NCBI GenBank assembly: GCA_031414955.1
Contig: JANOQV010000030.1
Span: forward strand, 1 to 64,000
Direction of reading: 5' to 3'
Source: Pedosphaera sp.
GTDB lineage: Bacteria > Verrucomicrobiota > Verrucomicrobiia > Limisphaerales > SIBH01
Length of the DNA: 64,000 nt
Position numbers: made by a program. This document shows positions 6,001-63,000 of this stretch, piece by piece. Each line of letters begins with the position of its first letter. Within the stretch, counting starts at the first letter, position 1.

Positions 6001-9000
6001 CAGCCGCACGGCTACAAGTGCGCCATCGTCATCAATGAGTTCGGCCCCATCAGCATCGACAACCAGCTCGTGGTGGGCGCGGATGAGGAAATCGTGGAAC
6101 TCAACAACGGCTGCCTCTGCTGCCGGGTGCGGGGCGATTTGATCAAGAGCTTGAACGATTTGTTCCAGAAGAAGAAACGCTTCGACTACGTGCTCATCGA
6201 GACCACCGGCCTGGCCGACCCCAGCCCCATCGTCCACACCTTCATGGCCTCGGACCTCGCGGACAAGCTGCGCTTGGACGGCATCGTGACCGTGGTGGAC
6301 GCGCGGCATTTTGAAAATGAATTGGAACAAGGGCCGGAGCCGCGCGCGCAGATCGCCTTCGCCGATGTCATCCTGCTCAACAAGACGGACCTGGTTTCGC
6401 CCGCGGATGTGGAACGCCTCGAGTCGCGGCTGCGGAGCATGAATGCGCTGGCCAAAATTCATCGCACCCAGAAGTCGCAGATCGACATTGGCAAGCTGCT
6501 CAACATCAAGGCGCGCGAGCTGACCGCTCCCTTGGAATTGCCCAAGCCCACCAAGCTGACCCTGACGCCCGTCGAGACGCCGCACGACCACGCGCACTGC
6601 GACCACGACCATTGTGATCACGAGCACGAGCATCACCACGCTCCTGCGCCGCAGGGCCAGCACGACGAACTGGTGCGTTCCTTTTTCATCGAGGAAGAGC
6701 GCCCGCTCGATTTGCCCAAGCTCGAGAAGTGGCTGGGCGAATTGCTCAACAGTTCGGGCGAGAAGATTTACCGCTGCAAAGGCGTGCTCAACATCCAGGG
6801 CATTCCCAAGCGCGTGGTCGTGCAAGGCGTGCAGATGATGCTCGACTCCGCGCCGGATCGTTTCTGGAACGCCGGGGAAAAGCGCCTGAGCCAGTTCGTC
6901 TTCATCGGCCGCGAGTTGGACGAGCCGGCCATCCGCGCCGGTTTCCAATCCTGTCTGGCCGCGTGAGGCTGAAGTGCGCGGACGAAGTCTCCCGCCGTCT
7001 GGCCCAGCCAAGGTAGGGCGACGCTGTCCCCAGCGCGCCGGGCCACGAATGGAGGAGAGTTCCCGCAGTAACGAATCGACTCTTGGCCAGACGTGGGAAT
7101 TAGGAATCACCGAGAGTTGACTCTGGGCCATGCGCAGCCATTGTGGCCATCAAAACACTGGGTCCGCCGTGGTTTTCATACCGGCGACCCAACTTGAGGC
7201 TGGCCTCGGGCATCATCAGCCCAAGGGTTGCTACAGTGTCGTGTTCTCGTCCTCCGTGGCGGCGACCGGAAGCGGACGCAATAGGTCGGTCAGTCCCTGC
7301 GCCTGGGCCTGAAGTTTTCCGGTGCAGGCTTTCTTGTCCACGCCGCTCTTGGAAGCTTCGTGGCTTTTGATGACCCAATACGCACCGAAGACATAGATGC
7401 CGGCGAGTTCGACGAAGAAGACCACGGGGTTGGGAGGCGGCAGGTGGGAGAGCAAAGCCCACGCGAGCAGAGGACAGAGCACCATGGCCCAACCGAGTAT
7501 TTGATAGGTCCGAAGGTAGCGTTTTCGCAGGGCGGGATCTGGAATCAGGGGCAAGGTGTCGGCCGCGCGCCAAATGCAGACGTAGGCGATGCAGACAAAG
7601 AAAGAGACCGCGCAGATCCCATGCAGGGAAAACAAACCGCCCTCGGCGGGCTTGAAGGCGGTGGGGAAGACCGCGACGCCGAGCGCGAGGCCGCCGGCGA
7701 GATTCAGCGCGTAATCTTCCAGACGGGAGTAGCCTTGATAGACCAAAAGCAGGCCACCCACGAGGAAGAGGATGCCCACGAATTCGTTGCGCATCAGACC
7801 CAACCCGGCTTGGTGAGAGTTACCGGCGTGGTAATAGGCGCTCATGGAACTGGCCAGGGGCAGCTTGTCCTTGAGCAGGCCGCCGATGCACAGCACGAGC
7901 GGGAAGGCGAAGGCCAGCACCGCGATGCCCAGGCGGAGCATCTGGTAGGTGGTGGAGATTTGCTTGCTCAAGTCTTTCGGTTTCATGGTTGTTCTGGGTT
8001 TGGATTCATTTTGGGTCTCTACAGACATTATACGGAGCAAGGGACCGAATCTTTCACGAGGTGGTGCAGATTCTGCAAGAGAAGGCGGGCGGCTCCAAGC
8101 CGCTGCGGCACCACTGGACGGGCGGGAACGACCGGACGTTCGGAGGGTGAGGTGGAACTTGCGTCCTGAATGATGCGAACTGCGTGGAAAATGTTTTTCT
8201 GTTTGACCCCTCTCGCTCATTTCGCGTACTCACCGGGACTCTGTTACGCCCCGCCGCGCCATGACGCGGCGGTGTGTTTCGCGGACATGGTGCGATGCTG
8301 AACGTAAAATCATTTCTGGCCGCTGACTTTGGGGCCGCGACTTTGAAGGTGGCCGAGTTCGAGCCGAACGAGGCGGGGGGACTGCGCCTCAAGCAGTACG
8401 GGTTTCGCGGACTGGGGCCGGAGGGTTTGCAGGAGAGCACCCGCGAGGCGGTGTTGCAGAAGACTCTTCAGGAAATTCTTTCCCAAGGCGGCTTCGAGTC
8501 CAAGCAGGTGAACATCTGCGCGCCTGGCTTCCACGTTTTTTCCAAGTTCGTCAAACTGCCGCCGGTTGATACTTCCAAGGTCACGCAGATCATTCAGTAC
8601 GAGGCGCAACAGAATGTGCCCTTCCCGCTGGAGGAAGTGGTCTGGGATTATCAAATCCTGGGCGCGGCCCCGAGCGGCGAGTTGGAAGTGCTGCTGGTCG
8701 CGATCAAGCAGGACATCGTGGAAGGGCTTTTTCGCACCAGTGAATCGGGCGGGGCCAAGCTGTCGCTGGTGGATGTTTCGCCGGCCGCGCTGGCCAATGC
8801 CTTTCGCTATAATTATGGCGACCTCGAAGGTTGCTCCATGCTCCTGGACATCGGGGCCAAGACGAGCAACCTGCTCTTCTTCGACAAGGAGGCAATTTAC
8901 GCGCGCGGCATCAACATCGGGGCGAATTCCATCACGGCGGATTTTGCCAAGGAGTCGAAGCTTTCCTGGGATGAAGCCGAGGCGGCCAAGATTGAGCACG

Positions 9001-60000: not shown

Positions 60001-63000
60001 CGCCCGTCGGTTCACTCATCACTTCCCTGGCGGGCTTTGCCGGCAGCGATCCGAACGGGCCTTGGTCGCTGTTCATTCACGACGATGGCGGTGGGGATGC
60101 CGGCTCGGTTTCCGGTGGTTGGTCGCTGACTTTGAACACGGTTTATCCGGTCAATCCCTTGGCCGATCTCGCCGTGACGGCCGTGGCGGTTCCCGCTGCG
60201 CCCATCCTTGATGAGCCGCTCACCCTGATCCTGACTGTGACCAATCTTGGCCCTAGCAATGCGCCTTCCGTGGTCCTGACCGACGTTCTCCCGGCCGGCA
60301 GTTCCTTCGTGAACGGTTCCGCCAGCCAAGGCGGGGGAGTGAGTTTCGCTGCTGGAGTCGTGACGGCGAATCTTGGCTCGATGAACGTCGGCTCCAGCGC
60401 CACGGTCACGATTCAATTGACACCCACAGCCCTCGGCCTGGCCGTCAACAGCGCCACCGTCTCGGGTGCTTTGACTGATCTGGTGCCCGTCAACAACACC
60501 GCTATCACGGCGCTCACGGTGGGCAGTCCCGTGGGTGATGTGTCGCTGTCGGTCGTCGCTTCGGCCCAGCCGGTGTTCCTCTCCAGCAATGTCGTCTTCA
60601 CCGTGCTCATCACCAATCGCGGTCCGAACCACGCCGCCCATGTGCAGGCCGGCACTTTCATGGCCTCCGTGCTGAGCGTGGTCTCCGCTGTCACGACGCA
60701 GGGTGGATGTGTTTTCGCCAGTGGCCAGGCGCTCTGCGACCTCGGCGATCTTCCGGCCAACGGCAGCGCGGTCGTGACCATTACCGCCGTGGCTTCGTCC
60801 ATCGGTTCGGCCCCGGCCAATTTCGCCGTGAGTTCCGACCCGACCGACCCCGTGCCGGCCAACAACTCGACCAACCTGCTTTGCACGGTCATTCCGACCT
60901 CGCCGGTGATTGTTCCGGCTGGCTCCGCGCTGCTCAACGAAGCCCTTCCGGCCAACGGCTCCATTGAATCAGGCGAGACCGTGACCTTGAGCTTCGGCCT
61001 GCGTAACGTCGGCAACGCCGACGCCGCGGACCTCATCGCCACGCTCCTTCCAACCGGTGGCGTCACTGGCCCGGGCGGACCGTTCCATTTCGGTGCGCTG
61101 CTCGCGAACGGTCCCACCGTCTCGAAGCCTTACAGTTTCACCGCGGGCGGCGCTCCGGGCAGCGCGCTCACGGCCACATTCCAGTTGTCGGACAACGGGC
61201 AAAGCCTCGGCACGGCGGTGTTCGCCTTTACCTTGAGCGCGAGTCGCTCCTTCACGAACAGCAACCTGATCATCATTCCCAACCAGGGACAGGCCACGAA
61301 TTATCCTTCAACGCTCAACGTCTCCGGCATTGCCGGCGCGGCCAGCCGGGTGACCGTGAATATCAAACAGTTGACTCACACCTTCCCCGAAGACATCGAC
61401 CTGCTCCTCGTTGGTCCCGCCGGGCAGAAAGTGCTGCTCATGTCCGACGCGGGCGCGGGCAATGCCGTCAGCGGCGTCAACCTGACTTTCGACGACGCGG
61501 CCACGGCGCTGCCGTTTAGTTCTATTATTTCCAGTGGCACCTATCATGGGACGGATTATCCGCCTGGCGACACGTTCCCGGCTCCCGCTCCGGCTGGGCC
61601 TTACGGCACCAATCTCGCCGTGTTCAACGGGATCAATCCCAACGGCACCTGGTCGCTCTACATCTTTGATGACGCCGTCGGCGACGCGGGCCGTGTCGAT
61701 GGTGGTTGGACCCTGAACATCCAGACCGCCGCTCCCATCGTCTCCGCTGCGGATGTCGCGGTGACGGCGATCGCCCCGACGGTCGTCGAATCTGGCACGC
61801 CTTTCAGCTACGTGCTGACGGTGGCAAATTTCGGACCGGCACCCGCCACTGGCGTCACTTTGAGTGATTCGTTGCCGGCGGGTTTCATCCTCAGTGGCGT
61901 CACGGTCAGTCAGGGCAGCTACAGCACTGGTCCTGGCACCATCACGGCAAACCTTGGAGCGCTCGCCCTTGGTGCCACCGCCACCGTCACCGTGAATGGT
62001 GCCGCCGTCGGGCCGATCACTCTCGTGAATCTCGTCTCCGTCAGCGCGGTTCAGGCCGATCCCAATCCGGCCAACAATCTCCTCGCGCCGGCGACGACGG
62101 TGAACGCGCTTGCCCTCACCATCCAGCGCAGCGATGGCAACGTAATCATCACCTGGCCGTTCCCGGCCCCGGGCTACGTCCTGCAATCCGCCGCCACCAT
62201 CGAGGGGCCGTTTACCAACTCGGGCCTTTCCGTCACGACGGTCAACGGTCGGAACCAGGTCGTCGCGCCCGCCACCGGATCGACCTACTACCGCCTCCAG
62301 AAACCGTAATCGTCCTCCGGCGTCGCACGGATGAAACTCTTCGGGCTGACCGGCGGGATCGGGATGGGCAAATCCACCTCGGCCGGCCTGCTCTCCCTCG
62401 GCGGGATTCCTGTCCTCGACACCGACGTCATCGCGCGGGAAATCGTCGAGCCGGGGCAGTCAGCCCTCACTGAGATCGCTGCGGCGTTTGGGGTTGAACT
62501 GATTGATGCCGAAGGGAAACTCCGCCGCGCCGCGCTCGCTGAGATTGTCTTTTCCTCGCCGGAGAAATTGAAGGAACTCGAAGCCATCCTGCATCCTCTC
62601 ATCCGCGAACGCTGGCGCGGCCAGGCGGCGCTCTGGCGGCGGGAAGGCCGGTTGGCCGGCGTGGTCATCATTCCTCTTTTGTTCGAGACCGGTTCTCAGT
62701 CGTACTTCGATTCGATCCTTTGCACCGTCTGCTCACCGCGCACCCAGCAGGAACGATTGGTCGCGCGGGGTTGGCCAGAACACCAGATCCAGCAGCGCCT
62801 GGCTGCGCAATGGCCGGTGGAAAAAAAGGTGGCCGCCTCGAATTTTGTGATCTGGACCGAGGGCGTGATGGAAATCCATCTCCTCCAGTTGCGGCGTATC
62901 CTCGGCGATTACCTGCCCCCACGCTGATTCCAACTCGACAGACCGGAGAGCACGAGCACGAGCGTGCCGAAGATCGTCCCGCTGATGGGGGTGGGAATGC

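Follow-up and report, generated by a model that had tools for sequence, protein, structure and literature searches.

A fibronectin-III domain without its last strand is a proposed portable terminal sorting tag in Verrucomicrobiota and accompanies an Amuc_1098-1101-like secretin cluster

Introduction

The type IX C-terminal domain (CTD; TIGR04183, PF18962) is a beta-sandwich of about 75 residues that stands at the end of hundreds of unrelated proteins with signal peptides. PEP-CTERM, the C-terminal sorting signal of the PEP-CTERM/exosortase system, is likewise used many-to-one and comprises a PEP motif, a transmembrane helix and a basic tail. The mechanism by which secretin machines select folded cargo is called elusive in the abstract of PMC7949064; according to that paper, the C-C' loop of the Fn3 domain of PelI/Pel3 (Dickeya, Pectobacterium) acts as a type II secretion signal. 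This Fn3 is seven-stranded and N-terminal, occurs in a single enzyme family and contributes to a composite signal. Among secretin-based machines, the MUL2 (Amuc_1098-1102) locus of Akkermansia is presented in PMC13174399 as a pilus for attachment and uptake; attachment and glycan uptake are the themes of the consulted text of PMC13174399 and PMC4960237, in which no tagged substrates appear.

Here we analyse a terminal domain, termed the tag, in a window of 64,000 nucleotides (positions 1 to 64,000 of contig JANOQV010000030.1, Pedosphaera sp.). Among the records listed by our literature searches, none described this domain. It occupies the place at which known export or anchoring signals stand in other proteins, behaves as a portable sorting tag and probably serves as an address that a pilus-type channel in the outer membrane reads.

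Results

The window begins with a type IV pilin-like gene (318..635, plus strand; TIGR02532 above cut-off, prepilin motif) and a second one at 816-1109 with a prepilin pattern. The remaining window genes described here all lie on the plus strand. A PilM-like, Amuc_1101-related gene (8295..10196; PF11104, TIGR01175 above cut-off, NF045709 E 5e-147), an Amuc_1100-related gene (10198..11070; NF038287 E 8.5e-26), a conserved gene in the Amuc_1099 position (11073..11891; no Pfam or NCBIfam match, homologue at the same place in 17 of 20 loci from the same taxonomic order) and an Amuc_1098-related secretin with N-terminal TPR (11917..14745; PF00263, NF042912 E 4.7e-104) follow each other in the order of the Amuc_1098-1102/MUL2 locus. 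The three equivalog models all scored below their cut-offs (NF045709 491 of 650 bits, NF038287 91 of 180, NF042912 349 of 750), and the cluster is therefore related to the Amuc locus but not the same equivalog. Besides gene order and related proteins, the two loci share a downstream coaE (PMC13174399, PMC4960237); coaE (62331..62927; PF01121) is an old 3' neighbour of the secretin cluster in other classes too, and here the tagged block stands between them.

The initial annotation had placed the tagged genes directly behind the secretin, which is not the case, since a 5'-3' exonuclease (14796..15695; PF02739, PF01367) and two untagged genes intervene: an exported repeat protein of no known family (15836..17251), tagged in 15 of 20 relatives, and an exported protein (17248..18681), also of no known family, present in 58 of 61 genomes of the order. 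The tagged block itself comprises an exported protein of 1,043 aa without a known family (18678..21809; terminal tag at about 21540-21803, E 3.1e-12; tagged orthologue in 17 of 20 loci of the order), a 3,815-aa Calx-beta/DUF5122/DUF11/PKD protein (21944..33391; tag 33158-33388), a 2,675-aa Calx-beta/DUF5122 protein (33417..41444; tag 41196-41441), a 4,772-aa Calx-beta/DUF5122/DUF11 protein (41460..55778; tag 55521-55775) and a 2,170-aa M36 metallopeptidase with DUF11 repeats (55797..62309; tag 62061-62306). Described earlier as five tagged giants, all five do carry the tag, but the first is no giant.

To delimit the family, an HMM was seeded with only the five window C-termini and iterated over the 38,608 stop-to-stop ORFs of the genome. 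At E<=1e-3 it recovered 200 terminal and 21 non-terminal matches, with none in reversed ORFs, and at E<=0.1 it recovered 215 and 26, with one reversed match; all five window genes were confirmed. Of the 215 copies, 97% kept the Trp and 87% the Arg that closes [FY][YF]R, and the stop codon mostly followed 4-5 residues past the end of the motif. Among 3,858 called genes, 183 had this motif within their final 16 residues, compared to 31 and 10 for two control windows. About a dozen of the 26 non-terminal matches directly followed a signal peptide. The tag was found on 71 of 96 whole genes of at least 1,500 aa, and tagged proteins contained 13% of the genome's protein residues. A crude signal-peptide test was positive for 151 of 188 whole tagged proteins; in the control set, which contains genuine exported proteins, it was positive for 868 of 2,449 untagged soluble ones. 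None of 45 copies reached any Pfam or NCBIfam family. These independent counts reproduce the earlier description of about 220 terminal copies outside known families, on exported proteins and on most of the very large ones, with a dozen copies behind signal peptides.

Cargo was diverse (158 families in 211 proteins, a survey that wrongly counts one ECF sigma factor as tagged), and 26 tagged proteins had a paralogue scored untagged, several of which end in divergent tags. The tag was also terminal elsewhere, in 31 of 34 matches from other orders and in 19 of 20 fetched from an Akkermansia-like genus. The 81,785 library representatives reported previously became 87,389 tag-like ones in our recount; 22 of the best 150 lacked the domain at their end, 20 of them with the wider spacing of ordinary Fn3 arrays, so this count overstates the tag family. 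For 18% of untagged genes a tagged gene lies no more than three genes away, and a single adjacency is therefore of little weight. No recurring dedicated receptor or neighbour family appeared among 547 neighbours of tagged genes.

The tag is a fibronectin-III fold without its last strand (G). The predicted structure of the copy at 41196-41441 has six strands, not seven. Over its whole length the tag matched the Fn3 domain 3MPC of Clostridium thermocellum in sequence (E 3-5e-5), and the two structures aligned with Z 6.0 and rmsd 2.6 over 64 residues, covering 3MPC to residue 79 of 96; on Fn3 the match ends at residue 73-79 of about 100. Consistently, tag arrays repeat every 70-85 aa compared to 87-97 for ordinary Fn3. 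Thus, Fn3 domains (PF00041, 3MPC) share fold, Trp and Tyr-Arg with the tag, whereas they have seven strands and a longer repeat period and the tag is nearly always terminal; ordinary Fn3 arrays in the same library search were internal. The kinship is one of profile similarity. None of the 45 copies matched PF00041, and Foldseek against the PDB gave no match at E<=0.001. The Trp that had been called invariant is nearly so; together with Tyr-Arg it is common to a bacterial Fn3 type, and neither is therefore tag-specific. The tyrosine-corner position is mostly Arg in the tag, and the best-conserved stretch is the C-C' loop with its Trp. We also found partial matches to chitosanase-associated binding modules. 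Among the library matches were small proteins consisting mostly of tag copies, and arrays with as many as 8 of them.

Two described domains invite comparison. Like the type IX CTD, the tag is a small beta-sandwich that ends many signal-peptide proteins; unlike it, the tag has arrays and N-terminal copies. Type IX CTD models in NCBIfam and Pfam matched 0 of 45 copies, the CTDs of RgpB, FspA and RemA aligned with the tag at Z 5.2-5.3, tied with many unrelated sandwiches, and SprA and PorP gave no match in the genome in a search whose positive control was also silent. The proposed type IX CTD counterpart is an analogy only, the fold being a cut-down Fn3. With PelI/Pel3, whose signal lies in the C-C' loop that is best conserved in the tag, the tag shares an Fn3 fold on a secreted enzyme; it differs in having six strands, in being portable and in being retained where a type II system is missing.

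The tag also replaces known signals. All seven whole proteins with autotransporter passenger repeats end in the tag, and two more are cut off at contig ends; no autotransporter barrel scored above cut-off in the genome, in a search whose control was positive in 3 of 14. Lacking a barrel, these passenger-type proteins still need an export route. One whole-length cargo occurs in a PEP-CTERM form (C141:22573-23310) and in two tagged forms, one at C284:9618-10565 with 42% identity and a second with 30%. The 15 PEP-CTERM proteins form a set separate from the tagged proteins, and the tag, unlike PEP-CTERM, has no transmembrane helix or basic tail. In addition, the head of a PilX-like pilin recurs in a protein with a signal peptide and the tag in place of pilin parts (C67:62143-64473, 55% identical). 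The sorting role proposed previously is supported by these swaps and by the terminal position in other lineages, while arrays and N-terminal copies fit an anchor equally well.

We compared the gene order across relatives. Within the order, 20 loci were fetched; an Amuc_1098-type secretin lay upstream in all 20, and tagged genes followed it in 18 of them. Directly after the secretin stood a tagged or tag-like giant in two genomes (G141, E 0.036; G138, by eye), and in a third (G081) two tagged-type genes stood just past it. The earlier statement that none of 20 relatives' loci had a tagged neighbour thus fails inside the order and roughly holds outside it, where 16 of 20 cluster loci had none. 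The order-wide synteny may reflect one old event. In all 18 readable loci of the order the gene after the PilX-like pilin encoded the same S8 protease, tagged by HMM in 17; outside the order the gene after a giant PilX-like pilin was tagged in 1 of 18 by HMM and in one more by eye. In G003 the PilX-like pilin directly precedes pilM. The PilX-like query matched 1 of 151 phylum genomes because this sample lacked any member of the order. A large tagged protein in the slot after a PilX/K-like pilin in 18 of 18 loci recalls PilC/PilY1 (PMC12918778); PilC/PilY1 has a propeller, whereas here only an S8 peptidase and a P-domain are present, and the gene did not match the PilY1 propeller family. PilY1-type strand donation was rejected: by eye, the PilX-like pilin appears to end in a strand of its own and may thus do without a donor strand. 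A general adjacency of pilins and tags was also dropped, since tags lay near 9 of 36 pilin genes compared to 759 of 4,504 other genes, no clear excess.

Next to gene order, we analysed co-occurrence across the phylum. With a narrow profile, at least two tags were found in 57 of the 80 genomes that matched the GspD N-domain strongly and in 1 of the 70 that did not, at thresholds chosen after seeing the scores and among related genomes that are not independent; GspK matched in 58 of 58 tag-rich genomes. The type II operons are canonical, and tagged genes occurred in 5 of 26 GspD loci. In this genome GspK scored above cut-off, GspD- and GspE-like genes slightly below, and F/H/I/J/L were assigned by position and operon likeness; GspG and GspC gave no match in the 95.9% complete assembly. 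Many narrow-profile negatives are distance effects. With a broader profile, tags appeared in all 8 genomes searched from the genus g6, which we take to be Akkermansia-like from Amuc models above cut-off. Their cargo includes GH18, sulfatase, sialidase-type and PMP-repeat proteins, GspD N-domain matches numbered 0 of 20 and GspK matches 0 of 14, and each genome has two secretin matches, in G063 both Amuc_1098-type. On this evidence the type II system was dropped as a required partner. Furthermore, the 94% complete G236 had 14 tag matches but not the GspD match seen in its congeners, and two whole families with GspD had no tag match (f110, 0 of 5; f107, 0 of 2). In family f8, tags were found in 0 of 11 genomes and secretins in 0 of 2 tested. 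The type II system tracks tag copy number and is not required; it may serve tag export in tag-rich genomes.

Of the 92 genomes that had at most one narrow-profile match, 83 likewise contained an Amuc_1101 orthologue, which was not found in 10 of 58 tag-rich genomes. We withdrew the conclusion that the Amuc cluster is absent from these ten, since an Amuc_1098-like secretin was found in all six checked, in two of them only as weaker split matches. Synteny, together with presence in tag-bearing genomes without a type II system, supports the earlier proposal of the Amuc_1100/secretin cluster as partner. The genome has three other secretins besides that of the window.

Discussion

The tag probably descends from a bacterial fibronectin-III domain that lost strand G. 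Cargo would cross the inner membrane via a signal peptide or signal anchor and fold in the periplasm, where a secretin-based type IV filament machine would recognise the terminal six-strand domain and either pass the cargo across the outer membrane or display it there. The likeliest candidate is the Amuc_1098-1101 (MUL2-like) system, which is Verrucomicrobiota-wide, together with its giant PilX-like tip cassette, and the binding site could be the edge opened by the missing strand, engaged by strand addition. That the tag is a sorting tag for such a machine is the reading we prefer, tentatively and at somewhat less than even confidence; against it, a signal would hardly need arrays with as many as 8 copies, or the dozen or so copies at N-termini. 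Further points against it are the Amuc_1101 orthologue in tag-poor genomes and its absence from some tag-rich ones, the many cluster loci outside the order that have no tagged neighbour, the published account of MUL2 as a pilus for attachment and uptake, the Trp and Tyr-Arg inherited from the parent Fn3, and the three other secretins of the genome. We are more doubtful of the wider picture, a Verrucomicrobiota-wide export or display pathway in which a strand of the Amuc_1098/MUL2-like machine would complete the tag on proteins making up to 13% of residues, and on glycan enzymes in Akkermansia-like genomes.

SLH and dockerin modules exemplify non-covalent surface docking. If the tag were such a module, binding a surface polymer or scaffold after export by another route, its arrays would raise avidity, and its presence at either terminus, the small proteins made mostly of tags and the anchoring role of the signals it replaces (autotransporter barrel, PEP-CTERM) would all fit. 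This docking role is possible, if rather doubtful, as it leaves the barrel-less passenger proteins in need of an export route and the conserved linkage to pilus genes unaccounted for, and the 547 neighbours contained no dedicated receptor family. The co-occurrence with GspD and GspK, the canonical operons and the PelI/Pel3 precedent (PMC7949064) would suit a modular PelI-like signal for the canonical type II system (gspE-F-G-H-I-J-K-L-M-D); the terminal tags in g6, the tags of G236, the tagless GspD families, the missing GspG and GspC matches and the few tagged GspD loci make this unlikely. Least probable, and very unlikely in our view, is an ordinary Fn3-type spacer or carbohydrate-binding module spread by shuffling with no sorting role. 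Sequence kinship to 3MPC (E 4.6e-5) and, in part, to chitosanase-associated modules points that way, as do the untagged paralogues, although several of these end in divergent tags; true Fn3 arrays, however, are internal, the tag is terminal in 200 of 221 matches in this genome and in nearly all those from elsewhere, and it swaps with known signals.

A portable tag would make the choice of folded cargo by secretin machines testable by simple fusions. If it acts as the preferred sorting tag for the Amuc/MUL2-like machine, the tag would let the secretome of an abundant polysaccharide-degrading phylum be predicted and would give the Amuc_1098-1101 cluster a job beyond attachment. The GH18, sulfatase and sialidase-type tags in Akkermansia-like genomes without a type II system place the decisive test in that genus, for which PMC13174399 cites a genetic system.

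A minor observation concerns the untagged exported protein at 17248..18681. An alignment search with it gave no PDB match, the single-sequence fold of 17335-18678 was predicted at pLDDT 30, too low to use, and it had 577 homologues, with no Pfam entry among the 120 listed. By its look, it may be matrixin-like.

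A terminal domain on unrelated exported proteins

The C-terminal 72 residues of each of the five tagged window proteins seeded a tag profile, which was iterated over the 38,608 ORFs of the host genome. At E ≤ 1e-3 it returned 200 terminal and 21 other matches on these ORFs and no match on reversed ones; at E ≤ 0.1 there were 215 terminal and 26 other matches, and one on the reversed set. This independent profile thus bears out the initial annotation's claim of a mostly terminal domain on unrelated proteins. Of 3,858 genes, 183 had the tag motif in their C-terminal 16 residues, compared to 31 and 10 in control windows, and 71 of the 96 whole genes of at least 1,500 aa were tagged. 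By a crude signal test, 151 of 188 tagged proteins passed versus 868 of 2,449 other soluble proteins; the cargo of 211 tagged proteins fell into 158 families. The domain's reported absence from family libraries also held up, as none of 45 copies matched a family: the best E was 0.071 in NCBIfam and 0.0071 in Pfam. All 30 Atlas look-alikes lacked a name, and literature searches, with most subscription papers out of reach, found no description in print.

The narrow profile had matches in 70 of 151 phylum genomes and a broader one in 87 of 151 class genomes, and in six other genomes 31 of 34 matches were terminal. The titles of 59 tag loci from named genomes comprised 41 Verrucomicrobiota, 6 unlabelled and 12 with other labels as submitted. 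The tag is real, phylum-wide and uncatalogued in the libraries searched.

Fold and descent of the tag

3MPC, an Fn3 structure, matched the profile over residues 9-73 of 103 (E 4.6e-5), and a repeated search agreed; the tag's Trp and Tyr-Arg are common to the parent Fn3 type. A structure model (six strands, pLDDT 83) aligned to 3MPC residues 6-79 of 96 with Z 6.0 and rmsd 2.6; type IX CTDs reached Z 5.2-5.3, level with unrelated sandwiches. Among the best 150 of 87,389 library matches, the domain closed the protein in 128, and in these its arrays, of up to 8 copies, had a period of mostly 70-85 residues. Because of the six strands, the coverage of 3MPC to residue 79 of 96 and this period, the tag is an Fn3 domain that lacks strand G. 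Of the 22 matches without a terminal domain among the same 150, 20 had repeats spaced as widely as in ordinary Fn3 arrays, and the library counts are therefore inflated.

Exchange with known signals

In the host genome the tag closed all seven whole proteins with autotransporter passenger repeats, and no autotransporter barrel was found there above cut-off. One PEP-CTERM cargo was also found tagged, whole-length, at 42% and 30% identity; 7 of 15 PEP-CTERM proteins had some tagged paralogue. The head of the PilX-like pilin likewise recurred on a signal-peptide protein with a tag. In these exchanges the tag behaves like a sorting signal. The signal-peptide copy of the PilX-like head, with its terminal tag, lies at C67:62143-64473 (minus strand) of the host genome (G000), and shorter partial matches occur in other genomes of the order.

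The window cluster and the tip cassette

Four matches to secretins and five ATPases of the PilB/GspE type were found in the host genome. The initial annotation placed five tagged genes directly behind the window's secretin; the genes are real, but three others lie in between. The gene at 17248-18681 was found in 58 of 61 order genomes, and 20 of the 58 were fetched, picked by score and contig extent. The secretin lay upstream in all 20. Fifteen loci had a tag on the 15836 gene, 17 had one on the 18678 gene, and 18 contained one or more tagged genes. In most of 20 loci taken from other orders and classes, an unannotated gene and coaE came after the cluster; 4 of the 20 contained tagged or tag-like genes, and in genomes G141 and G138 such a gene came next after the cluster. 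The 17248-18681 product belongs to no known family, occurs across the order and has many invariant residues; judged by eye, it may have a matrixin-like fold with an altered zinc motif. The gene at 1052-3421, adjoining two pilin genes, encodes a membrane protein weakly like PgfM glycosyltransferases and possibly has a role in pilin glycosylation.

The PilX-like pilin was found in 60 of 61 order genomes. Two of 20 fetched loci ended at a contig edge, and in each of the 18 readable ones the pilin was followed by one and the same S8 protease. The HMM found its tag in 17 (one of them cut short, another interrupted by a gap), and in the 18th the tag was recognised by eye. Outside the order, a tagged gene followed the pilin in 1 of 18 loci by HMM. 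In genome G003 the pilin lies directly upstream of pilM, which suggests that tip cassette and window cluster form one machine. The host's protease (C22:17583-24911, minus strand; L041:584-7912) has 2,443 aa, an N-terminal hydrophobic anchor and a terminal tag; its position behind the pilin is fixed order-wide, relatives carry 1-6 tag copies, and it could act at the tip or process tags. A second tagged S8 protease (C100:14855-22348; L043) directly precedes a PilV/W/X-like cassette.

Candidate export machines

Two or more tags were found by the narrow profile in 57 of 80 genomes with a strong GspD match versus 1 of 70 without. In the Akkermansia-like genus g6, GspD matched in none of 20 genomes, and the broader profile found tags in 6 of 20; a deeper look found them in 8 of 8 (these six and two others), with 19 of 20 matches terminal. 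The type II system had looked decisive by the narrow profile, and the g6 result undoes that reading. These genomes have two secretin matches each, both Amuc_1098-type in one genome checked. Six tag-bearing genomes in which pilM had gone undetected were checked, and all six had an Amuc_1098-like secretin. The Amuc type is thus the only secretin common to all tag-bearing genomes checked. As this type is near-universal (some Amuc_1101 match in 143 of 151 genomes), its presence speaks for compatibility rather than use. In family f8 the tag was found in none of 11 genomes, and no secretin in either of two tested.

Our leading reading, held tentatively and rated somewhat short of probable, assigns the tag to the Amuc/MUL2-like pilus machine. 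Cargo would be exported to the periplasm and fold there; the machine would then bind the six-strand domain at its terminus, perhaps adding a strand at the edge where strand G is missing, and pass the cargo through the secretin. MUL2 is an attachment pilus (PMC13174399); PMC12918778 describes terminal-strand complementation at pilus tips, and in PMC4960237 no outer-membrane protein is more abundant than Amuc_1098.

An anchoring role, which fits the arrays and the N-terminal copies, is a somewhat less likely explanation, and the tag could be both signal and anchor. PMC7949064 describes a type II signal in loop 3 of an Fn3 domain, which lies between strands C and C' and binds both GspC and GspD. 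Such a role would fit the tag's copy number; with g6 genomes tagged without a GspD match, we consider it improbable. An inert module fits most poorly and is more improbable still. We regard the tag as a variation on the idea of C-terminal sorting domains, one whose candidate machine is open to testing.

Further loci

Akkermansia-like genomes (loci L269-L288) carry a second tag subtype that ends in FLRL.V and follows a DG-rich repeat; it is found on GH18, sulfatase, BNR and PMP-repeat proteins, and a BACON domain often precedes it. In other classes of the phylum (L072, L073, L076, L077, L078, L082), a second GspK-like gene accompanies GspL/M-like and apparent ABC-transporter genes away from the type II operon. 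In small genomes of family f18, secretin genes of the Amuc_1098-like kind are divergent and several in number, and some of them stand in tandem (G089 C1, C3, C7). In the host, C54:5082-8162, adjoining a BlaI-like gene, encodes 1,027 aa with a BlaR1/M56-type membrane-sensor-like N-terminus (by eye) and a C-terminus matching a secretin domain. Behind a pilMNOPQ operon, C146:70467-73166 (L044:5468-8167) encodes a 900-aa exported repeat protein that ends just past the DxDxDG repeat found ahead of the tag in other proteins.
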